A stretch of 34,670 bases of DNA from Minisyncoccota bacterium. GTDB lineage: Bacteria; Patescibacteriota; Minisyncoccia; Phycocordibacterales; CSBR16-193. The stretch lies in contig JBKHAI010000001.1 of assembly GCA_046542915.1 (NCBI GenBank), positions 1-34,670 of the forward strand. The letters run 5' to 3'. Shown in pieces: positions 3,171 to 17,148 of this stretch (position 1 is the first letter of the stretch; every line of letters starts with the position of its first letter). The translations under genes and the position numbers were made by a program. The notes under the pieces were generated by a model that saw only the letters and a list, made by a program, of their open reading frames with translations, had not been told where the DNA came from and searched no databases.

Positions 3171-3491
3171 CTAGTTATTATCTAACCCTCTCTTTATCTC
3201 CTCAATGTGTTCTTTCATCTCTTTTTTGAAATCGGAGACCACTTCCTCCAAGATCTCGTCATAATTGGGAAGTTTTTCCCTTAAAAAGTTCTCTGTTCTC
3301 TCGGCGTCCTCTTGTTCCCTCACCTTTTCAAACTCATCACGCTCTTCTTCGGAGAGCTCTTCCAAGACACGAAGAGTTATCTTCTTTAACAGAGTCTCGG
3401 TCATCGCCTGAAGAATTCGTGACTGTGCTTCTTCCGGCAGGTTTTTAAGATCAAACTCTTCTAAGAGATCGTTTTTTTGTTGTTCTTCCAT
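3171..3491 (-). CDS. Small acidic helical protein, copy A (partner of the giant membrane protein)
   Basis: 106-aa ORF, rich in E/D/K, with no Trp or Cys and no hydrophobic segment. It lies 33 bp downstream of the 805-aa gene. The first 97 codons are identical to the ORF at 7502..7822 apart from one synonymous SNP. It may belong to a Patescibacteria DUF family, which I cannot verify. Confidence 0.7.
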   Translation of the reverse strand: MEEQQKNDLLEEFDLKNLPEEAQSRILQAMTETLLKKITLRVLEELSEEERDEFEKVREQEDAERTENFLREKLPNYDEILEEVVSDFKKEMKEHIEEIKRGLDNN

Positions 3492-3504
3492 AGTAAATAA
3501 ATTA
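3199..3504. repeat. Direct repeat R1, copy A (306 bp, 1 mismatch versus 7530..7835)
   Basis: Base-by-base comparison at offset 4331. The only difference is g at 3471 versus a at 7802. Identity breaks at 3505/7836 and at about 3198/7529. The block covers 5' codons 1-97 of the small gene plus 13 bp upstream. Confidence 0.9.
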
Positions 3505-3524
3505 ATTAATTATAGATCAAAATT

Positions 3525-5942
3525 TTATTTGGCAAGTTCGTTGAGTTTTTCTTCTTCAAAAATATTTCCGTGATCTTCTTTCAATAAAGCGATTTTTTCC
3601 TGCAATCTGTTCTTTACCCAATCGTATTCTTTACTACCCAGCTTATCTTTGTCTTCCATTTCCCTCAATACTTGCTCGTGAACCTTTATGTCCCCCAGAG
3701 AGCTTTGAATTTCACCCTCTTTTTCCAGATAACGAGCAGGATCTTCATTGACAGCTTCCAGATCAATAAATTTATTCGGATCAAAGTGCTTTAAGTTGCC
3801 TTTATAATGCATATCGCTCACGTTGCCTTCGGTATCATATTCAAAACCGAATTCTTCAAACTCAAAACCGCTTCCTTCTTTTCGGACAAACTCTTCATCA
3901 ACGGGGTCTTTCTCAACACCGCTTTGCTCTGATGGGTCCGGTTCAGAAGTTTCCCCCGACTCAGGAATATCTTGGTGTTTTAAAGGATCGGTTTCTTCTT
4001 CAGCTTCTTCTATTGGAGAGAACTTAGTTTCCGCAGAACTTTCTTTTACCATCTGTTCCTCGGCAATTCCTTTTTCATATAAAATGTTATCAACTTTTTC
4101 CGATGTTAGTCTTTCTCCGGGGTTCTCTTTGACCCACTCCTCTATTATTTCATTGTTTCTAACGATACTCTCCATAGCTTCTTGACTGAGATCGTTGGAA
4201 GATTCAAGCATACTTCCGATCAGTCCGTCTTTTGCCAAAGGTGAAAAATCTATTTTCTGTCCGGCTTGTACCATATCAATGCTATCAACTCCTTCCATTC
4301 CGAAATTAGACGGGTCTTCTGCGATCTTGTCCTTTATTTGATCTATTAAATGGGTCTTTTGAGCTTCGTTAAGATCCTCAAACTTATCCCCGAGATTATC
4401 TTTCAGGAAAGATTCGGTGGTACTCCAAACCGACTCGCCGGGTTTGATCTCAACACCAAATTCGATCCCGGAACTGCCGGCCGTCGCCATCTCCGGGTTC
4501 TTTATCCATTCCGGTTGCTCATCAAACTCTTGGACATCAAAACGATGTTCTTCAAACTGAGACTCATTAACGACTCCCTCACCAGAAACTCCGGCTTGAG
4601 AAGTATCTTGTGGCCGGGGAATATCCTGGTGATTTATAGGTTCATCTTCTTCAGTCTCTTCTATTGGAGAAAACTCCGTAGATTCCGGTTCGGATCCCGC
4701 TGTGGCCAAAACATTGCCTTCATAAGCGTCTGAAGAACCAGGGATGGAGTCATTTTTGTTCTCAGGATGAGACTCCGTAGGAACTTCACCGGGGTCAAAC
4801 AGACTGGATATTCCATCTATCGCTTTACTGACGGCCCCGGACCCCACCAAAACTCCGGCGGTACCGGCCAAGATATAACGCCTATATCTTTCACCTTTCT
4901 TTCGGCCTTCCAGTTCAAAGAGTTTGTTATCAAGTTCGGCGTTTCCGGAATTAAGTTTTTCTTCAAGACCTTTAGCAAAAAGTTCTGACACTTCTTTTTC
5001 CGTCTTTTTTTCCTGACTTTTCTTTATCAATCCTTCCAGACCGACCGCGGTAGCGGCACCACTTAACACTCTCTGAGCTCGGGACCCGGCTATGGCACCG
5101 GTTGCCAAAGCGGCACCGGCAGCACCGCCTAAGGCGCCGGCTCCGGCCCCCAGTCCTAAAAGACCGGCGGAAATACCCAGTTTATACCTTAACGGCAGAC
5201 CCCGATACCAGTTGGCTACTTTTTTACCGGTCTCTTTAGCTTTTTCTTTTAAAGAATCCGGTTTTTCGTTTAAAGCAGCTTCCAGTTTGGCTTCGTGGAG
5301 GTTGTTGGCTTCCAGGGTCAGGGTTTCTGTCATTATCCTTTCTATTTCCTTATCTCTATCCTCCTTTGAAAGTGACGGGTCTAGAGACTCTATTCGCTCT
5401 TTTCTTCTGTTTTTCAGAGCTTCAATATATTCTTGCTTTTTTTGAACATATTCTTGACTAGGACTTTCTTTGTTAACCTGATCAAGGTCCATTTTTGCGA
5501 ATTCTTTTCTTTTTTCTTTAAGTATCTCTTCCGAACTTCTCTCCTCTTCCTGAGATTCGCCCGGGGTTTCCTGAACTACCTCTTCTGACCCTTTTTCTTT
5601 TTCAGTCTTCTCATCACTCTCTTTGCCTTCAGTCTTCTTTTTTTTCTTCCTCATTTCTTTGTAATTATAAACGGCGTCTTCAAGTTCATTCAGTCTTTTC
5701 TGTTTTTCTTCAGGCAAAAATTTTCCTTTTCCTTGGGCAAACCATTCTTTTTTCAAGTTATCGAGCTCTTCTTGGTCCTTCTTATTCTTTTCTCTTTTTT
5801 CCACATCCTCTTCCATTTCCTTTCTAACCTCTTCCATATACTCTTGTGTGTCATCGTCTCTACCACGATAAGCGGTTTCGGCGTGGATCTGAGGGTCTTG
5901 TTTTTCCTCGTTGGGATTATTTACGGGTGGTTTTTCACTCAT
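3525..5942 (-). CDS. Giant acidic membrane-anchored protein, paralog A (charged N-terminus, glycine-zipper TM core, LysM-like module, C-terminal F-rich module)
   Basis: 805-aa ORF. The N-terminal ~200 aa are K/E-rich. The core WYRGLPLRYKLGISAGLLGLGAGAGALGGAAGAALATGAIAG…YILAGTAGVLVGSGAVS is hydrophobic and Gly/Ala-rich. A very acidic C-terminal half follows. 167 aa are identical to the 1040-aa paralog. Confidence 0.75.
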   Translation of the reverse strand: MSEKPPVNNPNEEKQDPQIHAETAYRGRDDDTQEYMEEVRKEMEEDVEKREKNKKDQEELDNLKKEWFAQGKGKFLPEEKQKRLNELEDAVYNYKEMRKKKKKTEGKESDEKTEKEKGSEEVVQETPGESQEEERSSEEILKEKRKEFAKMDLDQVNKESPSQEYVQKKQEYIEALKNRRKERIESLDPSLSKEDRDKEIERIMTETLTLEANNLHEAKLEAALNEKPDSLKEKAKETGKKVANWYRGLPLRYKLGISAGLLGLGAGAGALGGAAGAALATGAIAGSRAQRVLSGAATAVGLEGLIKKSQEKKTEKEVSELFAKGLEEKLNSGNAELDNKLFELEGRKKGERYRRYILAGTAGVLVGSGAVSKAIDGISSLFDPGEVPTESHPENKNDSIPGSSDAYEGNVLATAGSEPESTEFSPIEETEEDEPINHQDIPRPQDTSQAGVSGEGVVNESQFEEHRFDVQEFDEQPEWIKNPEMATAGSSGIEFGVEIKPGESVWSTTESFLKDNLGDKFEDLNEAQKTHLIDQIKDKIAEDPSNFGMEGVDSIDMVQAGQKIDFSPLAKDGLIGSMLESSNDLSQEAMESIVRNNEIIEEWVKENPGERLTSEKVDNILYEKGIAEEQMVKESSAETKFSPIEEAEEETDPLKHQDIPESGETSEPDPSEQSGVEKDPVDEEFVRKEGSGFEFEEFGFEYDTEGNVSDMHYKGNLKHFDPNKFIDLEAVNEDPARYLEKEGEIQSSLGDIKVHEQVLREMEDKDKLGSKEYDWVKNRLQEKIALLKEDHGNIFEEEKLNELAK
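4826..5328. repeat. Direct repeat R2, copy A (503 bp, apparently 100% identical to 10021..10523)
   Basis: Aligned by eye at offset 5195 with no mismatch seen. Flanks diverge immediately (4825 t versus 10020 c; 5329 g versus 10524 t). The block encodes the identical 167-aa TM core. Confidence 0.9.
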
Positions 5943-6016
5943 ATTAAAAGCAGTTTAATACATTGGTAATTTAAATACACTATATCAAAAAAAATAAAAA
6001 AAATACTAGAGATCGA

Positions 6017-6583
6017 TCACTTTTGGTAAATTTGTTTGAGTTCTTTTTTGCTATCTTCATAACGAGGTATTGCTTCAGCGACCAGAGACCAAAAATCTTT
6101 TGAATGGTTCAGATGCTTTAAGTGGCAAAGCTCGTGAACTATAAGATAATCCTGAAGTTCTTCTTTCAAAAAAACTATCTTGTAATTGAAATTCAAGTTC
6201 TTTTTGGAAGAGCAACTCCCCCAACGACTCTTTTGGTTGCGTATTGATATTCTGTTGAAGTTGAAACCATAAAACTCATTCCAGTAGGAGACCTTCTTCT
6301 CTACCAGTTTTCTGGCTTTTTCTTTATGTTCAAGATAATGCTCCGGATTCCGAACTTCTATGTCGGGATCTGTATTCTTGGTCCTTTGCGAGAGTTTCTT
6401 TCTAACCCAATCCATCTTTTCATTTAAAAAAGAGATCGCTCTCTCTTCCGTCACATACATTGGCCGAGTTACTAGAACATCTCCGTTGGGCGATATGGTT
6501 ATCCGAAGGTATTTAGAGCGCCGATGCCGACGAAAGAAAACCTTTATATCACCCTTTTCATCTCTTAAAAACAGCTCCTTCAT
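6017..6583 (-). CDS. YgjP-like / DUF45 (M48-WLM type) metal-dependent hydrolase
   Basis: 188-aa ORF with the C-terminal signature LIVHELCHLKHLNHSKDFW (HExxH…H…FW) characteristic of the DUF45/YgjP family. It starts 4 bp after the upstream nuclease gene. Confidence 0.7.
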   Translation of the reverse strand: MKELFLRDEKGDIKVFFRRHRRSKYLRITISPNGDVLVTRPMYVTEERAISFLNEKMDWVRKKLSQRTKNTDPDIEVRNPEHYLEHKEKARKLVEKKVSYWNEFYGFNFNRISIRNQKSRWGSCSSKKNLNFNYKIVFLKEELQDYLIVHELCHLKHLNHSKDFWSLVAEAIPRYEDSKKELKQIYQK

Positions 6584-6587
6584 TGTC

Positions 6588-7439
6588 TTAATGGATCATA
6601 TAAAGGTCTTGTTTGTACTCTCCGACTCCAACATATTCGGCCTCTCCGTTCAGGATCTTTTCATAGGGTTTACAGGCAAAACATCCTCCGCGGGGACATT
6701 TAAATTCATTTTCTTCTCTGGCCTTTTTAACCTCTCGCGCCACTTTCAATACGTCCTCTTTACTCTTTTGCGGATCGGGGAGTTCAATCTCTCTGGGGGC
6801 ATCCTCTGAATCTACATACCAATAATATGCACCGCTTATCGGTCTTTTTTGAAGCGCTTTAAGTAGCAGAAAATAAATAGGGAGTTGTAAGGAACCCTCT
6901 TTTTCTTCGTTCTTGCCGGTCTTAAAATCAAGAACCCGGATGCTGTCATCCTCTTCCCTGTACTCCAACCAGTCTATCTTACCGCAAAGAATTATGTTCT
7001 CCTCTTCTGAGAGATAGAAGTTGGGCAACATTCCGCCGTCTTTTAATTTTACGGTTTTGTTGGAAAGCGGTCCGGGGTTTTTCATTACCCTTTCTATCAT
7101 CTCTTTCCCTCTTTCTTTCATTTCTTCTTCCTCCTTCTTGTCCGTAAACCCTCCTTTCTTGCCGGAGACCTTACCCCAGGCATCCTCATAATGCTCTAAG
7201 AGTGGTTGCTCCATTCGCTCCTCCGCTTTAAATCTTATCAGTCCTTCCAAAACTTCATGAACGGCTTGCCCTAGTGAAAGCGCCGGATTGACGATGTTCA
7301 TTTTTCGGCCGGTTTTGGGGTCTTTATAAACATTATGAAGATAATAAAGCCGAGGGCACTTCAAGAAATCCCCCATAGAAGAATGCGAGACCCAAACAGC
7401 CGAGTATTTGTCTTTGTTTTTTTCCATAAAGATCCACAA
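6588..7439 (-). CDS. PD-(D/E)XK nuclease, RecB/AddB/Cas4-like with putative Fe-S cysteines
   Basis: Motifs seen: GQAVHEVLE, GKIDWLEY, VLDFKTGK (D…D/ExK) and LQLPIYFLL (QxxxY). There is one N-terminal Cys (FLKCPRLYY) and a C-terminal CPRGGCFAC cluster. The track start is a TTG; the ATG at 7427..7425 (MEKNKDK…) is the more likely start. Confidence 0.7.
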   Translation of the reverse strand: MWIFMEKNKDKYSAVWVSHSSMGDFLKCPRLYYLHNVYKDPKTGRKMNIVNPALSLGQAVHEVLEGLIRFKAEERMEQPLLEHYEDAWGKVSGKKGGFTDKKEEEEMKERGKEMIERVMKNPGPLSNKTVKLKDGGMLPNFYLSEEENIILCGKIDWLEYREEDDSIRVLDFKTGKNEEKEGSLQLPIYFLLLKALQKRPISGAYYWYVDSEDAPREIELPDPQKSKEDVLKVAREVKKAREENEFKCPRGGCFACKPYEKILNGEAEYVGVGEYKQDLYMIH

Positions 7440-7501
7440 TTTTAAGCAAGGTCAAAAGAAATTCTGACTTAAGCTACTTTGATCTCATTTAACAACTTTG
7501 A

Positions 7502-7822
7502 TCAGTTTTCTTCAAGCCCTTTCTTGATATCCTCAATGTGTTCTTTCATCTCTTTTTTGAAATCGGAGACCACTTCCTCCAAGATCTCGTCATAATTGGG
7601 AAGTTTTTCCCTTAAAAAGTTCTCTGTTCTCTCGGCGTCCTCTTGTTCCCTCACCTTTTCAAACTCATCACGCTCTTCTTCGGAGAGCTCTTCCAAGACA
7701 CGAAGAGTTATCTTCTTTAACAGAGTCTCGGTCATCGCCTGAAGAATTCGTGACTGTGCTTCTTCCGGCAGGTTTTTAAGATCAAACTCTTCTAAGAGAT
7801 CATTTTTTTGTTGTTCTTCCAT
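7502..7822 (-). CDS. Small acidic helical protein, copy B
   Basis: 106-aa ORF. It is identical to copy A except for the last ~9 residues (…HIEDIKKGLEEN versus …HIEEIKRGLDNN). It lies 21 bp downstream of the 1040-aa gene. Confidence 0.7.
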   Translation of the reverse strand: MEEQQKNDLLEEFDLKNLPEEAQSRILQAMTETLLKKITLRVLEELSEEERDEFEKVREQEDAERTENFLREKLPNYDEILEEVVSDFKKEMKEHIEDIKKGLEEN

Positions 7823-7835
7823 AGTAAATAAATTA
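7530..7835. repeat. Direct repeat R1, copy B
   Basis: See 3199..3504. Confidence 0.9.
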
Positions 7836-7843
7836 GGTTATGA

Positions 7844-10800
7844 TTAATTTTTTATAAATGATGCCAAGGTTTTTTTAACCTCTTGTAGTGAATCTTTGTC
7901 CAACCTTTTCTCCTCCACATTTAGCTCCTCTGAGCCTGAGCCGGCATTTATTTTGCCGTCCAAAGAAAGATCGATCCTAAACTCTTTAGTTTCACCTTCG
8001 GATACTCCCTTTTCTATGGTTATTGAAACCCCACCTTCATCTTTTCTTTCTATTTCCAAATTATCTTTGCTCACCTTACTGTCATTTAAGGAGTCCTCTC
8101 CCAAAAAATCCTTGAGTGTTCTTTCCGGTTTATCCCCGGGCATAGCGTCATCATTCCAGTTCTCAAAATAAAGATCGGCTAGAGCTTTCTTTGTTCCACC
8201 CTCAAGCTCCGTGGAATCAATAACACCGAGTAGATGCTCCACCGTTTCCTCGTTGCCTTCAGAAATACCGTATCTTTCCATTATTTCCTTAGTTTTTGTG
8301 CCTTCTAAAACACCTTCTTCCGTCGTTGCCTCCCCCGAAATTATTTCTTCCACTTTATCAGATGTTAAAAGCTCGGAAGGGTTTTCTCTGACCCACTCGG
8401 CTATCTTTTGATTATTTTCAATGATCCTGTCAATGTCTCCGTTACTAAGATTACTTGCCGACTCAAACATTCTGGTGATCGCTTCTTCTTCCTTCATTAT
8501 TGTAGAGAGGTCAATTCTCTGCCCCGATTGGACAATGTCTATATTATCTACTCCTTCCATTCCGAAACGATCGGGGTCTTCGGCGATCTTGTCTTTTATA
8601 GCATCCAGCAAGTAAGTCTTTTGAGCCTCATTAAAATTATCGAACCCTTCAAAGTGACTTCCGATCTTTTCCTCGACAGCTTTCCAGACCGAACCACTTT
8701 CTTTAACTTCCGCTACATAGGTCTCGGTTGGATCTTCAAATTGAATTTTGGTATCTGTTTCTTTTTCCGGTTCTAATTTTTCAAAAGTCTCCGTATCCGC
8801 CTCTTGGGGCACCATCTCCGGTGCCGGTTCGGACTTTACTTTTTCTTGCTCTTTTAAGATATCTTCCGGTGGCTTTGGAACCGGTGGAGCTTCCGGTTCC
8901 TTTGGTTCAGGTTCGGAAATTGACGGCTCCGGTTCAGTTTCAGTGAAGACCTGTGGCTCCGGCGCTTTCTCGGAAGTTTCAACTTCTTCTCTGACAAGCT
9001 CCATCACGTCACGCGACGAAGATAACATCCTTTCCATAACTTCTCCGTTCGCCAAAACCGTTGAAAGATCAAGTTTTTGCCCCGGTTGGACAATATCTAT
9101 GTCGTCCACCCCCTCCATTCCGAACTGTTCCGGATCTTCAGCTATCCTTTCAAGCACCTGAGCCGTTAAGTACTCCTTTTGAATTTTAGTTAGACCGTCA
9201 AAATACCCCAACTCGTTTAGTTTGGCTTCTGTAACATCCCAGACTGAATCCCCGGCTTCTATCTGAGTTACAAATTCCTCGTTATAAGATGGAGTCTCTT
9301 CCACGGTCGTATCATCAGGAGCGGGTGGCTCATCAGGATCAAGGTCTTGTTTTGGGTCTTCGTTTTGAAGATCGTCCGAAGGATCAGGAACTTCTTCCGG
9401 TTGAGTTTCTTCTTTTTCTGCGGATAATTCCTCTTCACTTGCAGCTTGTGGTATTTCCCGAGGTTCCGGTTCGGCAATTTCCACCTCCGACTTTTCTTCA
9501 ACCGTCAGGTCATTCTTCAGTTCATCTATTTTTAAGATGTTTTCATACTTTTCAATCAAAGAATTCTTACCCTCCTCCAAACGGTCTTCCAACCATTGAT
9601 ATTCCGCCCCCTCACTCAACCCCTTCTCCTGCACCCTCTCAAGCGCCTGTTGATATATCTTTAATTCCTTAATAGAATCTTCCAGTTTCACTTTCTCGCT
9701 CAAACCAAAATCATCCGCCTCCTCGGCAACAGAAAAATCAATGAACTTGGCGGCGTCAAAATTCATAAAATTGCCGGCAAAATCCAGATCCGTGACGTTA
9801 CCCTCATCGTCTTTGACAAAATTGAGTCTTGTAAAATCAAAGGAGCTCTCTTTCTCCGCTTCTAAAGATCCGGTTTCTTCAAGCTCCTCCGCCGAGCCGC
9901 TTGGAGAGTCTCCTTCGGGAACACCGGCATAAGCTTCGGATGAACCAAAGGCATCTTTCATTTTACCAAGGATCTCTTCCTGGTTTCCGCCGAAAAGATC
10001 CGCCATACTTGAAAAGACCCTACTGACGGCCCCGGACCCCACCAAAACTCCGGCGGTACCGGCCAAGATATAACGCCTATATCTTTCACCTTTCTTTCGG
10101 CCTTCCAGTTCAAAGAGTTTGTTATCAAGTTCGGCGTTTCCGGAATTAAGTTTTTCTTCAAGACCTTTAGCAAAAAGTTCTGACACTTCTTTTTCCGTCT
10201 TTTTTTCCTGACTTTTCTTTATCAATCCTTCCAGACCGACCGCGGTAGCGGCACCACTTAACACTCTCTGAGCTCGGGACCCGGCTATGGCACCGGTTGC
10301 CAAAGCGGCACCGGCAGCACCGCCTAAGGCGCCGGCTCCGGCCCCCAGTCCTAAAAGACCGGCGGAAATACCCAGTTTATACCTTAACGGCAGACCCCGA
10401 TACCAGTTGGCTACTTTTTTACCGGTCTCTTTAGCTTTTTCTTTTAAAGAATCCGGTTTTTCGTTTAAAGCAGCTTCCAGTTTGGCTTCGTGGAGGTTGT
10501 TGGCTTCCAGGGTCAGGGTTTCTTGAAAGATCTCTTTTTTACGGGCTTCTTTTTGTTCATCGGAGATATCTTGTTCGTCCAGTTCTTTTAATTTAGTATT
10601 TCGATATTCCTTCAGAGCTTCCAGGTACTCTTCTTTCTTTCTGAGATACTCCGGGTTTTCATTCTTTTTATAGTCTTCTTTGGTTGCGTTGATCTGATCA
10701 CCTTGACCTTTCCAAAAATTAACTTTGTTTCTTTTTTTGACCCATAATTCCGCCTCTCTATCAACTTCCGCGAATTTCTGGCGTTTTTGATATAAAAGAA

Positions 10801-10966
10801 CGTCCGGAGTAATTTCCTTACCTTCATTATCTTCTTTTATTTGTTCCGGGTCTTTTTCGTACCCTTGCACTTCGGAGAGATCTTCGCTATGTCCTTTCAA
10901 ATCGGGTGGAGTTTCTTTTTTTATCCCATCGATTGGTTCTACGTGGTTTTTTTCATTGAGGTCCAT
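7844..10966 (-). CDS. Giant acidic membrane-anchored protein, paralog B (same TM core, F-rich module, two LysM-like modules, extra C-terminal domain)
   Basis: 1040-aa ORF that starts 7 bp after the ATPase stop codon. Its 167-aa core is identical to paralog A, while the remaining modules are rearranged and diverged. It contains Pro/Glu-rich linkers (EPEPSISEPEPKEPEAPPVPKPPE). Confidence 0.75.
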   Translation of the reverse strand: MDLNEKNHVEPIDGIKKETPPDLKGHSEDLSEVQGYEKDPEQIKEDNEGKEITPDVLLYQKRQKFAEVDREAELWVKKRNKVNFWKGQGDQINATKEDYKKNENPEYLRKKEEYLEALKEYRNTKLKELDEQDISDEQKEARKKEIFQETLTLEANNLHEAKLEAALNEKPDSLKEKAKETGKKVANWYRGLPLRYKLGISAGLLGLGAGAGALGGAAGAALATGAIAGSRAQRVLSGAATAVGLEGLIKKSQEKKTEKEVSELFAKGLEEKLNSGNAELDNKLFELEGRKKGERYRRYILAGTAGVLVGSGAVSRVFSSMADLFGGNQEEILGKMKDAFGSSEAYAGVPEGDSPSGSAEELEETGSLEAEKESSFDFTRLNFVKDDEGNVTDLDFAGNFMNFDAAKFIDFSVAEEADDFGLSEKVKLEDSIKELKIYQQALERVQEKGLSEGAEYQWLEDRLEEGKNSLIEKYENILKIDELKNDLTVEEKSEVEIAEPEPREIPQAASEEELSAEKEETQPEEVPDPSDDLQNEDPKQDLDPDEPPAPDDTTVEETPSYNEEFVTQIEAGDSVWDVTEAKLNELGYFDGLTKIQKEYLTAQVLERIAEDPEQFGMEGVDDIDIVQPGQKLDLSTVLANGEVMERMLSSSRDVMELVREEVETSEKAPEPQVFTETEPEPSISEPEPKEPEAPPVPKPPEDILKEQEKVKSEPAPEMVPQEADTETFEKLEPEKETDTKIQFEDPTETYVAEVKESGSVWKAVEEKIGSHFEGFDNFNEAQKTYLLDAIKDKIAEDPDRFGMEGVDNIDIVQSGQRIDLSTIMKEEEAITRMFESASNLSNGDIDRIIENNQKIAEWVRENPSELLTSDKVEEIISGEATTEEGVLEGTKTKEIMERYGISEGNEETVEHLLGVIDSTELEGGTKKALADLYFENWNDDAMPGDKPERTLKDFLGEDSLNDSKVSKDNLEIERKDEGGVSITIEKGVSEGETKEFRIDLSLDGKINAGSGSEELNVEEKRLDKDSLQEVKKTLASFIKN
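10021..10523. repeat. Direct repeat R2, copy B
   Basis: See 4826..5328. Confidence 0.9.
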
Positions 10967-10973
10967 AATATAC

Positions 10974-13724
10974 TTATATTACTTCTTTATATTTCATTTG
11001 AATGTCTTCTTCAACGTCTTCCCGAGGGCGTCCGTATCTTATATAAGACAGTTGTTTAAGGTCCTCCACTTGACTTTGATCTCCCTCTTGAGGAGGAAGA
11101 GGGTTGAAATTAAAGGGTCTACTAGGATAACCGTTAACCAAGATCTTTCCGACGGCATGGTAGTTCTTTAAGTTCATAATATTATTTGTGGAGAACTCGG
11201 GCTCAAACTGAGAAGAAAGAAACTCGGCGTCTTCATATCCCACTCTAAACGAAACCATTGATCCAACGTTACCGAATATGGAGTCACGGATCCCGTCATC
11301 GAGCTGAGAAATGAACTGATGGAACACGCTCAAACAAAGCTTGTACTTTCTGGCCTCCGATAAAATAGTGTTAATGGAATCGGTAGTAACGTTCTGAAAC
11401 TCATCAATATATAAATAAAATGGTGGCAAATCTTTAGAAACCTCACGAGAAAGAGCTGCCATCAATATTTTACCAACCAAGATAAGACCCAACAAGTGAG
11501 AATTAATATCTCCTAGTTTTCCTTTAGAGAGGTTAACCAGTAAGATCTTTCGATTATCCATAACATCCTTAAAATCAAAAGATGATCTTTCCTGAGCTAT
11601 TATCGGTCTCATAATGTCATTGGCAGTAAAAACATCAAATTTACTGGTTATATAGGGAACAATATTCTCAAGCTGTGACTCACCTCCAGCCTTTGTGGCT
11701 ATTTCGTTCCAAAATTGGTTCACTACCGGGTTTTTGCATTTAGATAATTTGTGATCTCTGAATTCCTTGTTAGACAAAACCTTGGATATATCCAAAAGGG
11801 TACTGTTCGTATCCGGATCCTCAAGAGTGAGCATTGTCGCGTTCCTGAAGTACTGTTCAAATATTGGCCCCATCGCTTCGGGATTACTTGAATAAAGTTT
11901 CTGAAAGATACTAAAGAGTTCATTAACAACAAAAGTTTTTTGCTCGGGACTTTCTTTATCATACTCAAGCATATTCAAAGCCATTGATCTTTTTGTATAA
12001 CCGGGCTCAAAATATATCACGTCATCAAACCTTTCCTTCGGGATCCTTTGCAGTACATCATCAATATCAGATCCATGAGGGTCTATCATACAAACTCCGT
12101 CACCATTTTGAATATCCTGAATGATCATGTTCTTTAGAAAGTTGGTTTTACCAGTACCGGTCTGCCCTATTGTGTAAAGGTGTCTAACTCTGTCTTCTTT
12201 GGACATATAAACTTCGGTCTTTTGATTCCTGTGCTCATTTATGCCTAAAAGTATGCCGTTTCTATGCATATCAGGCGGAGGAGGCGCCGTTTTATGAGTG
12301 GTCTGTTTGAACTCCGGAGACGAGACAGTGCTTAAAGAAGTGTGCATCATAGAGGTCAGTTCTTTAATGTTCAACGGTAAGGCGTTCTTTCTGTTGAAGC
12401 GCCGGAATATGAAATCTTTGGATAGGCGGTCAAGTTTCTTACCTTTCAATCTCTTAAACTCAAGCTTGTTGCCGGTTGAGTTCTCAAACTGATTGAACGA
12501 GGCCTCTATTTCGTCAAGCATTAGATCACATCTTTCCTTGCTGTCAGCGGAAGAGATCACCCTGATATTAGTGGGAATGATCATGGCGGACATCTTTTTC
12601 TTTACTTCCTCTATCACTACTTGGTCAGGTTGGCGCGGAGACTCGTCAACTTCTTTTTTATTATTACCGGAAATTTCTTTGAATATACCTTTTAAGACAT
12701 TAAGCGTATCCCAGGAAATATTCTCTGCCGCTTCTTTTAAGGAATAACCCTTTTCCAGTTGCGTTAATATCTGTCGGTTGCGATTTGAGTGTTCTCCGGT
12801 CCCGGGATTAAAAACGAACTGAAGAGCAACCCCTTCCCTTTTTTCCGCTATCTTGGAAAAGGCGTTTAAGATCACATTCATAGGATCATGATCAAATTCC
12901 TCGTAACTTTTTAAAGGCAATGAAGGGTCTTTTTTAAACTCAGCAATTGATCCGGCCACAACTCCTTTTTCTACAAAGATGTTGTAGTCATTCTTTCTTT
13001 CTATTATTTGGGCCTCCGGAAAAACAGAAAGGAGCTGCTTTTCAAAGACCACTGTCTTCTCATCCGGAATAGCGGCATACATAACAATGTTACTACTTTC
13101 TTCAGAAGTGGCTATTTCAAAAGTGAAAAAACCCCCTTCCTTGGCACTAACCCCCGCAACGGAATGCATTCCGGCGTAAAACTGCTCCATCGAGGAAACT
13201 ATCTCTTTAAAGGTCTTTTGTTTATCTTCATCAGAATCTTTTTTCGGCAAAGATATCTCAAAAAGGGTCATTTTAAAAGAACGCCAGAGCTCCGTCTTTT
13301 CTTTTAATCCCTTGATAGAATGGCCGGTCTTTAACCACTGAACCAAAACTCGGTGAAGATCATCTTCAAGATGATAATCCTGCATCTTTTCAACCAAAGA
13401 GAGGGTGTTATGAACTCCCTTCTCTTCCATTGTTTCCAAGAGTTTGCTTATTTTAATGTCGTGATCTTCCGGTTCTATATCCAAAAGACGGGAAAGTTTA
13501 TCGGCTTCCGTCATCTCGGCATTTTCTGAGAGAACCTCGGAAGCCGGTTTTTTTTGGTATTCCTTGACCTTTTCTACACTGGCGTCTTCTTTTTCTTTTT
13601 TTTCCGCGGCTTCTCCCAATTCTTCTTCTTTTTTCGCCAACTCTTGACGCAGGAAATCAAGTTCTTCCTGGGGAGTTTCAAAGCTTTTTTTAGTTTCTCG
13701 GTCTCCTAACGACTCTTGATTCAT
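10974..13724 (-). CDS. TraD/TrwB/VirD4-like (FtsK-HerA superfamily) P-loop ATPase with an uncharacterised ~480-aa N-terminal region and no TM segments
   Basis: 916-aa ORF. Walker A is HLYTIGQTGTGKTNF (about nt 12141..12167) followed by CMIDPHGS. Walker B is FYLYIDEFQNV (about nt 11391..11425). The C-terminal GNVGSMVSFRVG…AEFL resembles coupling-protein C-terminal domains. I saw no hydrophobic helix in the N-terminal half. Confidence 0.65.
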   Translation of the reverse strand: MNQESLGDRETKKSFETPQEELDFLRQELAKKEEELGEAAEKKEKEDASVEKVKEYQKKPASEVLSENAEMTEADKLSRLLDIEPEDHDIKISKLLETMEEKGVHNTLSLVEKMQDYHLEDDLHRVLVQWLKTGHSIKGLKEKTELWRSFKMTLFEISLPKKDSDEDKQKTFKEIVSSMEQFYAGMHSVAGVSAKEGGFFTFEIATSEESSNIVMYAAIPDEKTVVFEKQLLSVFPEAQIIERKNDYNIFVEKGVVAGSIAEFKKDPSLPLKSYEEFDHDPMNVILNAFSKIAEKREGVALQFVFNPGTGEHSNRNRQILTQLEKGYSLKEAAENISWDTLNVLKGIFKEISGNNKKEVDESPRQPDQVVIEEVKKKMSAMIIPTNIRVISSADSKERCDLMLDEIEASFNQFENSTGNKLEFKRLKGKKLDRLSKDFIFRRFNRKNALPLNIKELTSMMHTSLSTVSSPEFKQTTHKTAPPPPDMHRNGILLGINEHRNQKTEVYMSKEDRVRHLYTIGQTGTGKTNFLKNMIIQDIQNGDGVCMIDPHGSDIDDVLQRIPKERFDDVIYFEPGYTKRSMALNMLEYDKESPEQKTFVVNELFSIFQKLYSSNPEAMGPIFEQYFRNATMLTLEDPDTNSTLLDISKVLSNKEFRDHKLSKCKNPVVNQFWNEIATKAGGESQLENIVPYITSKFDVFTANDIMRPIIAQERSSFDFKDVMDNRKILLVNLSKGKLGDINSHLLGLILVGKILMAALSREVSKDLPPFYLYIDEFQNVTTDSINTILSEARKYKLCLSVFHQFISQLDDGIRDSIFGNVGSMVSFRVGYEDAEFLSSQFEPEFSTNNIMNLKNYHAVGKILVNGYPSRPFNFNPLPPQEGDQSQVEDLKQLSYIRYGRPREDVEEDIQMKYKEVI

Positions 13725-14838: not shown

Positions 14839-15213
14839 CTACTCGGAAGTTTCTGTATCAGCAACCGCCCGACATCCTTCTATGGTCTTATCTCCCGTTT
14901 TAAGAGTAGCTTCTTCACCTTCTATTTTTAAAACTACGAGACCGTCACCGCTTTCGTAACTAGCACTGGAGGTTGAGACCACACCTTCAAGGAGTAAGGT
15001 TCGGCCACTGGGTAGAGTAAACTCAACCATTGAACCATCGGAATGAAAAAGAGTATCTAGTACAACTCCGTCATCGCATTCATATTTATCGGCCATAACA
15101 AGCTCTTCCTCTTTCTCCTTGGATGGAGCTTCCCTGTCCCACTGCAAAACCAGAATTAGGACCGAAGCCAATAAAAGTACCACTCCTAAAATAATAAGTA
15201 TGTACCTATTCAT
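14839..15213 (-). CDS. Secreted or anchored MliC-like (C-type lysozyme inhibitor fold) protein
   Basis: 124 aa. It has an N-terminal hydrophobic signal or anchor (ILIILGVVLLLASVLILVL). The pattern YECDDG…VEFTLPSGRTLLLEGVVSTSSASYESGDGLVVLKIEGEEATLKTGDKTIEGC then matches the MliC layout (YxCdxG … SaSGarY … KGdEAtl … C). Confidence 0.5.
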   Translation of the reverse strand: MNRYILIILGVVLLLASVLILVLQWDREAPSKEKEEELVMADKYECDDGVVLDTLFHSDGSMVEFTLPSGRTLLLEGVVSTSSASYESGDGLVVLKIEGEEATLKTGDKTIEGCRAVADTETSE

Positions 15214-15286
15214 ATTCTTTTATTAGTACAGCTTAATATTATCACGCTTTCTTTAGCTGACAAAGGAAAAGTGTTGGTATTGGAAC

Positions 15287-16081
15287 TTAAAAAGTACCAA
15301 CGGTGATAAATCTTTTTTTCCAGCCCTTCTTGAATTGCTCCTCGGTTATTCTAAGACCTCCCAGACCTTCCGCCGGATCATTATAGTAAAGAAGGTTCTC
15401 AGCTTCTCCGCTGATGACCACCAAATGAGGTATCTCACTATCGGGGTCAAAACCATGAAAAACAGAAGCGATAACGGGTCCGTCATTTAAAAAAGATAGA
15501 AACTGGTGATAAGCATCATTCATAGCCAAATGAGAAAGATCATGAGTCTCGGCCTTCAGGTCATGTTCTTCCGCCATTAAGGCCAGTCCGTTGTGAGTCC
15601 AGCCAAGTTCCGTTAAGTAATGACCGGAGGAAAGACCTTCTTCTAGCAGTAATTGCGGCGAGGTTTCTCCGGGTTTATACATCTCTATCAACATCGCCAA
15701 ACTGGCAACTCCGCAGGCCCTACCTCTCCATTTAACCCAGTTTATATCACTTGACTGAGAAAAGAACGGTACCTTGGGCACAGTGGCAGGGAGCGTTTCT
15801 TTAAGGTCTTTAGAAGCATTTTTCACTGAAGTATTATTATTTTCTCCAAGTTCGCGCTCATCTCTCTCTTTTACCGACACAGAGGCGGCCAGACTCCGAG
15901 AGTAGTCCGGCTTTAGTGGGATGCCAACGTCTTGATAAAAAAATTCGGTCGTAACCACATCGGGGGTCTTTTTATCCATATGGTTACCACTCAGAAAAGA
16001 AAAACCGGATAAAGCTCCGGCACCACTTACAAAGACCCCGAAAAACAAACCGAAAAGCGAGATCTTTAACATTGACAGCAT
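15287..16081 (-). CDS. Peptidase C39-like (papain-fold, Peptidase_C39_2-type) secreted protein
   Basis: 264 aa with an N-terminal signal or TM segment. The candidate catalytic Cys context is WRGRACGVASLAMLIEMY. A downstream His (IPHLVVISG) and NDP follow, as in C39-like domains. Confidence 0.55.
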   Translation of the reverse strand: MLSMLKISLFGLFFGVFVSGAGALSGFSFLSGNHMDKKTPDVVTTEFFYQDVGIPLKPDYSRSLAASVSVKERDERELGENNNTSVKNASKDLKETLPATVPKVPFFSQSSDINWVKWRGRACGVASLAMLIEMYKPGETSPQLLLEEGLSSGHYLTELGWTHNGLALMAEEHDLKAETHDLSHLAMNDAYHQFLSFLNDGPVIASVFHGFDPDSEIPHLVVISGEAENLLYYNDPAEGLGGLRITEEQFKKGWKKRFITVGTF

Positions 16082-16116
16082 TGAGCTTTTATACCATAAA
16101 CAAAGAGATCCTGCAA

Positions 16117-17148
16117 TTAATCTCTAACTATGATCTCAGTCCCCAGCTCCGCCCAGTGATAAAGCTCCTCGGCCTCCTCCGGGCGCATATTGACACATCC
16201 GTTGGAATAAGGGCTGCCAAAAGATTCATGCCAATAAGCTCCATGAACAACGGCCCCTTGCTCCGTAAAATAAAGATTCCACGGCACTCCCGGCAGGTCC
16301 CAGTATTGAAGACTGATACCGGGAATCGGTCCTTGCATATAACGGCTTGGTGTTTTTTTAAAAACAACAAACTCCCCTCTCGGAGTCGGAGTTAAATTCA
16401 ATCCCGTAGAAATATCATACTCCATAACTAACTCATCATTTTCGTAAGCATAGAGTTTTTGTCCACCCCGTTCAACAACTATCAGCTTCATATTACTCTT
16501 CTCTTTTGGATCTAGAGAAGAGATGATCTTGCTTCCTTCTTCAAAAAAGACCTCTACGTGATCAGCTACCACATACCAGTCCCCGGACGACCTATCCGGG
16601 TAACGAAGCCATTCATTGAATTCTATCTTATACCAAAGATGTTCTTGTCTTTCTATGCTTTTTTCAACTTTCAAGATCTGCCCGTTGCGAAGCTTTCCAA
16701 CTATCGGATGATCGGTGCCCGGTCCGGCTCGGACATTGAGACACTCGCCGTTAAAATATGGTCCACAACTACCTGTTACTTTTATGTATTGAAATAGATC
16801 TTTATCAGTAGAAGTAGCCCCAAGGTCTTCTTCGTCTTCCTTGTCCTCCTCGTCAGTTACTACGACATCTTTTTCAGGAACGTCCTCCAGGTCTTGATAC
16901 CATTTTTGATTAAGATCATTATCTTCTGCCAAATCCGTCAATTTTTTATTACCATCCGTCTCATTCTTTTCTTCATCTTGCTTGACCAAATGGCTTTCTT
17001 CCTCGATATTCACTCCCGCCTCAGCTCCTTCTGACACGGATGAGGTATTGAAAATAGAACCCCAATAGAAAAAGAACCAAAAGAAAGTAGCGAGAACCAC
17101 CAAAGATAAAAGTGATATTATAAAAAGGTTTTCGCGGTTTCTGATCAT
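16117..17148 (-). CDS. L,D-transpeptidase (YkuD domain) with SH3b-like domain and N-terminal membrane anchor
   Basis: The YkuD active-site signature VVHGAYWHESFGSPYSNGCVNMRPEEAEELY is present. An SH3-like stretch (LNVRAGPGTDHPIVGKLRNGQILKV) and an N-terminal TM segment (FIISLLSLVVLATFFWFFFYW) are followed by an acidic linker. Confidence 0.85.
   Translation of the reverse strand: MIRNRENLFIISLLSLVVLATFFWFFFYWGSIFNTSSVSEGAEAGVNIEEESHLVKQDEEKNETDGNKKLTDLAEDNDLNQKWYQDLEDVPEKDVVVTDEEDKEDEEDLGATSTDKDLFQYIKVTGSCGPYFNGECLNVRAGPGTDHPIVGKLRNGQILKVEKSIERQEHLWYKIEFNEWLRYPDRSSGDWYVVADHVEVFFEEGSKIISSLDPKEKSNMKLIVVERGGQKLYAYENDELVMEYDISTGLNLTPTPRGEFVVFKKTPSRYMQGPIPGISLQYWDLPGVPWNLYFTEQGAVVHGAYWHESFGSPYSNGCVNMRPEEAEELYHWAELGTEIIVRD

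Follow-up and report, generated by a model that had tools for sequence, protein, structure and literature searches.

Duplicated genes in bacteria can evolve in concert by gene conversion, as tufA and tufB do in Salmonella. In the outer-membrane adhesin paralogues babA and babB of Helicobacter pylori, the conserved end segments are homogenised and the central binding region differs between the two genes. Here we describe a comparable case in a stretch of 34,670 nucleotides from a Minisyncoccota bacterium (phylum Patescibacteria; contig JBKHAI010000001.1, positions 1 to 34,670 of the forward strand, assembly GCA_046542915.1), referred to below as the window. It carries two cassettes, A and B, each consisting of a giant membrane protein gene and then a small gene encoding a DUF5663 protein, and two segments of these cassettes are identical, or very nearly so, between the copies. 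We consider it probable that these identity blocks were left by recent intragenomic gene conversion between two old, directly repeated paralogous cassettes.

The resemblance to babA/babB extends to several features. Old paralogues reside in one genome, their identity is limited to conserved segments and includes the synonymous sites, the limits are sharp and fall at the ends of homology, the variable surface-domain region is untouched, and the extent of homogenisation varies by strain. The cassettes differ from babA/babB in belonging to another protein family and another phylum, in that one of the converted segments is a separate downstream gene, whereas in babA/babB both belong to one gene, and in giving no sign of phase or antigenic variation.

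The window was compared with itself by BLASTN and then base by base. Self-BLASTN returned only two high-identity pairs, one matching at 100% over 503 bp (4826-5328 and 10021-10523) and the other over 332 bp with nine mismatches (3173-3504 and 7504-7835). In the base-by-base comparison, the sole difference between 3199-3504 and 7530-7835 lies at 3471/7802, where codon 7 on the minus (coding) strand reads AAC versus AAT, both Asn; the remaining eight mismatches of the small gene are confined to 3177-3198, its last ~9 codons. The two blocks and their copies are:

4826 to 5328, minus strand: first identity block in cassette A, coding for the 167-aa Gly/Ala-rich membrane core of giant A (100% over 503 bp)
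10021 to 10523, minus strand: first identity block in cassette B, coding for the identical 167-aa core of giant B (100% over 503 bp)
3199 to 3504, minus strand: second identity block in cassette A, codons 1-97 of DUF5663 small gene A with the 13 nt before its ATG (self-BLASTN, base-by-base comparison)
7530 to 7835, minus strand: second identity block in cassette B, codons 1-97 of DUF5663 small gene B with the 13 nt before its ATG (self-BLASTN, base-by-base comparison)

The 503-bp block encodes 167 identical residues, 206-372 of the 805-aa giant A and 149-315 of the 1040-aa giant B. The spacers between the blocks measure 1321 bp in cassette A (3505-4825) and 2185 bp in cassette B (7836-10020), and the only alignable DNA inside them is one stretch of ~265 bp at 69% identity (4120-4383 and 8379-8645), which is an ectodomain module common to both cassettes. 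Identity of such length within otherwise unalignable DNA far exceeds chance. A preliminary description of this stretch, made from its sequence, had given the small-gene block with its single synonymous Asn difference, its codon limits and the two spacer lengths, and these particulars, coordinates included, proved correct; so did its statement that homogenisation is confined to the small gene and the membrane core, with very different sequence between them in the two paralogues.

The duplication that produced the cassettes is old. The same two-cassette layout, with a nuclease and a peptidase gene between the cassettes, is found in five other Paceibacterota/Campbellbacteria genomes (loci L002/L003, L004, L005 and L001 as two contigs of one metagenome-assembled genome (MAG), L006/L009 and L013; the relatives are annotated as Candidatus Paceibacterota), and it is this synteny across genera that dates the duplication. 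In other genera the cores group by position, with 83% amino acid identity between the A copies of L002 and L013 and 86% between their B copies but 53-56% between A and B; the small proteins are likewise grouped by position in a neighbour-joining tree, and the A and B small proteins of other two-cassette genomes are 56-62% identical. Outside the core, giants A and B of the window each match their positional orthologues. The nucleotide identities between the paralogues of each genome are:

Window: small gene 99.7%, core 100%
Sister strain (~96% identical to the window overall): small gene ~98% (6/304 differences, same block limits), core 83% (85/504 differences)
L002: small gene 73.5%, core 75%
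L013: small gene 72%, core 68%
L006: small gene 67%

At the protein level the two cores of the sister strain are 77% identical. Thus, high paralogue identity differs by genome and is a trait of the species-level lineage, and for the core a trait of the window genome alone.

Comparison with the sister strain, at a background divergence of ~3.8%, shows how recent and how lineage-specific the identity is. The core is 100% identical within the window and 87.6-89% identical to either sister-strain copy, and 16 core sites carry substitutions that are common to both window copies and present in neither sister copy. A derived substitution of the same kind occurs in both window small genes at nucleotide 117 of the coding sequence (3375/7706). 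Given the ~3.8% strain divergence, the absence of any difference in 503 bp means that the last homogenisation was recent; since the synonymous sites are also homogenised, protein-level selection cannot explain the identity. The limits of the core block are those of the 83%-identical paralogue segment in the sister strain (L004 7303-7806 and 12627-13130), and the small-gene block has the same limits in L001/L005, with unalignable flanks. Each tract therefore occupies all of the DNA that could recombine and ends at the point where the flanks can no longer be aligned.

We suggest that the tracts would have been created by non-reciprocal homologous recombination between the cassettes, limited to the core segment and codons 1-97 of the small gene as the only cassette parts still alignable as DNA. 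We infer a recombination mechanism of the RecA/RuvAB type, and RuvA and RuvB, both encoded in the window, were counted in favour of conversion. Homogenisation would have gone on once this lineage and the closest sequenced strain had separated, and copy B may have been overwritten by A in this lineage, in that both segments look A-type: window small B has the A allele at nucleotides 192, 194 and 283 of the coding sequence, where sister B copies differ from A copies, and for small proteins and cores alike both window copies resemble the A-type sequences of other genera slightly more than the B-type ones.

Some observations weigh against gene conversion, or against details of it. The contrast with the sister strain may partly reflect the sister's own fast divergence or an import of alleles, because, of 33 informative amino acid sites in the window core, 25 have the state that the outgroups support. 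The A-to-B direction would rest on small differences, 63-65% versus 59-60% for the core and three sites for the small gene. The exact core identity is known from one metagenome-derived contig only, and relative to the sister A and B cores the window core is a fine-scale mosaic (44 A-like, 36 B-like, 16 unique and five other sites). Repeated conversion would yield a mosaic core, but so would an assembler that collapsed the variant bubbles of two similar cores into one consensus path and crossed it twice, inflating their identity to 100%. Contigs of the sister MAGs do break in the same repeats, L005 ending and L001 starting within core A and L004 ending in small gene A. We nevertheless consider an assembly artefact unlikely. 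The longest run shared by the sister cores, at 83% identity, is 45 bp, too short for bubble collapse at the usual k; for a collapse to occur, the real copies would have had to match at about 95% or more beforehand, and that similarity in turn calls for conversion. Separate contigs of the sister-strain MAGs also show the small genes nearly identical (~98%, same limits), and the 16 window-specific sites (3.2%), together with the five matching neither sister copy, amount to 4.2%, which fits the ~3.8% background and is expected of real sequence.

The preliminary description had proposed instead that the small protein and the core are kept identical because they interact with each other or with the single ATPase encoded next to giant B, so that homogenisation would be adaptive and maintained by selection. 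Small gene, core gene and ATPase are strongly linked across the phylum, the core holds one of the two clusters of invariant columns in the giant family, both segments are homogenised in the window, and between strains the small gene has accumulated two differences in 304 bp where about 12 were expected. The linkage is strong enough to support a common function, but gives no support to the view that identity is kept up for the sake of it. Strongly diverged paralogues are tolerated in genomes that have two cassettes and a single ATPase, at 53-56% amino acid identity for the core and 56-62% for the small protein, none of the five others keeps the two parts identical, and the blocks are not coupled in the sister strain (~98% for the small gene, 83% for the core). 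The core is moreover among the faster-evolving parts between strains (ratio of nonsynonymous to synonymous divergence, omega, 0.34-0.55), which argues against maintained identity, and protein-level selection does not require identity at all synonymous sites. We therefore regard selection for identity as improbable. Still less credible is a recent segmental duplication of one cassette, all but two blocks of which then diverged or were replaced: the cassettes are direct repeats with the same order and orientation, but both of them, with the intervening nuclease and peptidase genes, are syntenic in other genera, by which such a duplication is already refuted; the agreement of giants A and B with their positional orthologues also speaks against it, and the DNA between and around the blocks is unalignable, beyond mere divergence.

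Divergence between the strains is unevenly distributed over the locus. For the core, synonymous divergence (dS) between window and sister is 0.19-0.29 and nonsynonymous divergence (dN) ~0.10, compared with a dS of 0.09-0.13 and a dN of 0.004-0.02 for the flanking genes; at the protein level the core is 83-84% and the ATPase 98.7% identical. The divergent parts are the N-terminus of giant A, both cores, the linkers that follow them, and the X module of giant B. The last of these (residues 374-483, window 9484-9845) is 35% identical in amino acid sequence to its counterpart in the sister locus (L004 6860-9979), and over about 500 bp, starting just 3' of the core block in giant B, the DNA cannot be aligned; the entire stretch from core to X module has been replaced between the two strains. 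Either recombination with a distant lineage, which replaced the allele, or very strong diversifying selection seems to be responsible. The idea that the ectodomains are free to diversify holds for this module but not for the Y modules and C-terminal parts, which are near background (93-96% amino acid identity). The small gene is unusually conserved between strains, synonymous sites included (window 3199-3504 and L001 2134-2437).

The hydrophobic segments of the giant proteins lie solely in the Gly/Ala-rich core. Giant A consists of a charged helical N-terminus, the core, a linker, a Y module (494-632) and an X module (691-803), and giant B of an N-terminus, the core, an X module (374-483), two Y modules (564-662 and 750-887) and a tail; the order after the core is thus Y, X in A and X, Y, Y, tail in B. 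Neither the giant proteins nor their X, Y and tail modules, taken singly, could be assigned to a family by scans against Pfam, NCBIfam and PADLOC, and a LysM-like identity for the Y module was rejected, with no LysM match even at E <= 10. The AlphaFold2 (AF2) model of giant A is poor (predicted local distance difference test score, pLDDT, 51, and below 50 in the core), its only confident parts being the N-terminal helices and the Y module; a fold search with this low-confidence model, Y module included, returned only noise. An exhaustive profile search places about 1,080 cluster representatives in the giant family at E <= 1e-3, and the invariant columns of the family form two clusters, one of them inside the core. 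This search and a full-length homology search were the ones that worked for the giant family; a word-index search with the 167-aa core alone found nothing, the window's own proteins included, probably owing to low-complexity words. In cluster data, the exact giant A and small B sequences occur on two contigs each and small A on three.

The tandem Y modules of giant B are 93-94% identical to each other in L002 (3799-4143 and 4237-4578) and L013 (11759-12082 and 12197-12520) and only ~76% identical in the window (8502-8588 and 9060-9146). Identity between these modules therefore varies by lineage, and intragenic homogenisation too comes and goes.

The small proteins are better defined. Small A matches PF18908 (DUF5663) with an E value of 7.5e-12 and 46.1 bits (cut-off 23.7) over profile positions 1-83 of 84; both small proteins match this family end to end, and all relatives found match it. 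They are acidic (net charge -16) and soluble and contain no hydrophobic or transmembrane segment. The AF2 model has five helices at a pLDDT of 90, and a fold search with this confident model found no neighbour in the PDB. A literature search for DUF5663 and DUF8128, the latter a family discussed below for the ATPase, found no paper mentioning either in the library consulted, and as far as we could find the linkage of DUF5663 to a core-bearing membrane protein has no prior description.

The cassette genes all lie on the minus strand with short gaps between them, and the two cassettes, as direct repeats, have the same order and orientation. In the order in which they are read, the genes of the locus are:

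10974 to 13724, minus strand: the single ATPase, 916 aa (Pfam TraG-D_C, TrwB_AAD_bind)
7844 to 10966, minus strand: giant gene B, 1040 aa (open reading frame, module comparison)
7502 to 7822, minus strand: small gene B, 106-aa DUF5663 protein, differing from A only in the last ~9 codons (sequence comparison)
6588 to 7439, minus strand: PD-(D/E)XK (Cas4-like) nuclease gene between the cassettes (Pfam; syntenic in all two-cassette genomes)
6017 to 6583, minus strand: YgjP-like metallopeptidase gene between the cassettes (Pfam; syntenic in all two-cassette genomes)
3525 to 5942, minus strand: giant gene A, 805 aa (open reading frame, module comparison)
3171 to 3491, minus strand: small gene A, 106-aa DUF5663 protein (Pfam PF18908)

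The nuclease and peptidase genes (6017-7439, minus strand) keep their place between the cassettes in L002, L004, L006, L009, L010 and L013. The ATPase gene lies upstream of giant B, and 7 nt separate the end of the one from the beginning of the other. Small and giant genes share a reading frame in both cassettes, across gaps of 33 nt (3492-3527) and 21 nt (7823-7846). This is probably a coincidence; read-through from the giant into the small gene was rejected, with two in-frame stops between the genes in both cassettes and a frame that is not conserved in cassette A of L002. A scan for promoters and terminators gave hits at chance level; a promoter-like site with 10/12 matches lies near the start of the ATPase gene, at 13760-13733. 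An Rfam scan found one tRNA and nothing else. Elsewhere the window is ordinary chromosome, with genes for RuvA, RuvB, PolA, a Mur ligase, Fpg, TsaE, a PilB-like ATPase, a penicillin-binding protein and tRNA-Lys. Directly upstream of the locus (14839-17148, minus strand) are three cell-wall-related genes, encoding a homologue of MliC-like lysozyme inhibitors, a C39-like peptidase and a protein with an SH3 domain and a YkuD L,D-transpeptidase domain, and these are syntenic in sister strains.

The ATPase resembles VirD4/TraD/TrwB coupling proteins in its C-terminal half, with IcmO/DotL also among the matches. Its Pfam matches exceed their cut-offs (TraG-D_C, 26.5 bits with a cut-off of 22; TrwB_AAD_bind, 23.2 bits with a cut-off of 20.5), but all NCBIfam TraD/VirD4 models score far below theirs, for example 60 versus 366 bits. 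In orthologues the N-terminal half is precomputed as DUF8128 (PF26449), and the window ATPase has a corresponding N-terminal region of ~460 aa. A Kyte-Doolittle scan found no hydrophobic segment in residues 1-736 and hence no N-terminal membrane anchor. The protein thus departs from type IV coupling proteins (T4CPs; VirD4/TraD/TrwB) in having this large DUF8128 region in place of an N-terminal transmembrane anchor. No VirB4, other type IV secretion system component or relaxase was found in the Pfam-scanned open reading frames (about 3.2-31 kb of the window) or in related loci. A 2025 survey (PMC12102498) counts 5,713 VirD4-like T4CP homologues in Patescibacteria, only 148 of them near virB4, and for the orphans its authors raise exaptation. 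Like most of these homologues, the window ATPase does not stand next to virB4; unlike coupling proteins, it has the giant core protein and DUF5663 as its constant neighbours, a pairing not described in the passages of the survey considered here.

A search with the giant-protein alignment retrieved 64 metagenome loci, in which this association was examined. Every one of the 18 distinct, complete core genes with sufficient flanking sequence adjoins a DUF5663 gene on the same strand, upstream or downstream, and among the 18 loci with 6 kb or more of flank 11 also contain the ATPase. The trio of ATPase, giant protein and DUF5663 is also kept in distant single-cassette genomes, a Saccharibacterium (L012) among them. 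On that contig, 9708-9918 is repeated as 9918-10128, a perfect 211-bp tandem duplication running from the end of the ATPase gene to the start of the DUF5663 gene, which may be genuine or an artefact of assembly. At the cassette-B position of L010 (1591-3888) there is a gene for a 765-aa protein without a detectable core, not followed by a DUF5663 gene, and cassette A is intact; cassette B thus appears to be dispensable or decaying in some lineages.

The cassettes invite comparison with polymorphic toxin/immunity cassettes, which they resemble in combining a large modular protein of variable C-terminal region with a small gene that follows it, in two tandem versions. Here, however, the small gene is the conserved element, and in some lineages it lies upstream of the large gene; scans with Pfam, NCBIfam and PADLOC detected no toxin, immunity or defence domain in the cassette proteins. 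The cassettes belong to a widespread, uncharacterised set in Patescibacteria (the Candidate Phyla Radiation, CPR) that comprises DUF5663, a modular membrane protein with the core and, in many cases, a VirD4-like ATPase lacking the anchor. As a working guess, the membrane core might dock the ATPase, with the small protein as a cytoplasmic adaptor. A bolder idea, which we hold to be rather doubtful, is that the trio, with shuffled ectodomain modules in its giant protein, would be a new, Patescibacteria-specific envelope machine in which the core docks an exapted ATPase and DUF5663 serves as cytoplasmic adaptor, and that the homogenised segments, which lie on either side of the ectodomain-coding DNA, would also act as recombination anchors through which ectodomain modules are exchanged among cassettes or strains. 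If true, the latter role would account for the X module beside the core in giant B having been replaced between strains.

As examples of concerted evolution the identity blocks are of the textbook kind; they offer a clean instance in a bacterium with an ultra-small genome, and little beyond. The neighbourhood in which they occur has wider implications. Patescibacteria possess thousands of VirD4-like ATPases outside type IV secretion systems (PMC12102498), and at this locus one of them is found with constant partners. These partners, a large modular membrane family for which Pfam has no model and the uncharacterised DUF5663, make it a concrete and testable three-gene unit, and the same trio is carried by Saccharibacteria (locus L012), which are cultivable. 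The gene conversion seen here is ordinary; the three-gene unit that surrounds it is uncharacterised and merits attention of its own.

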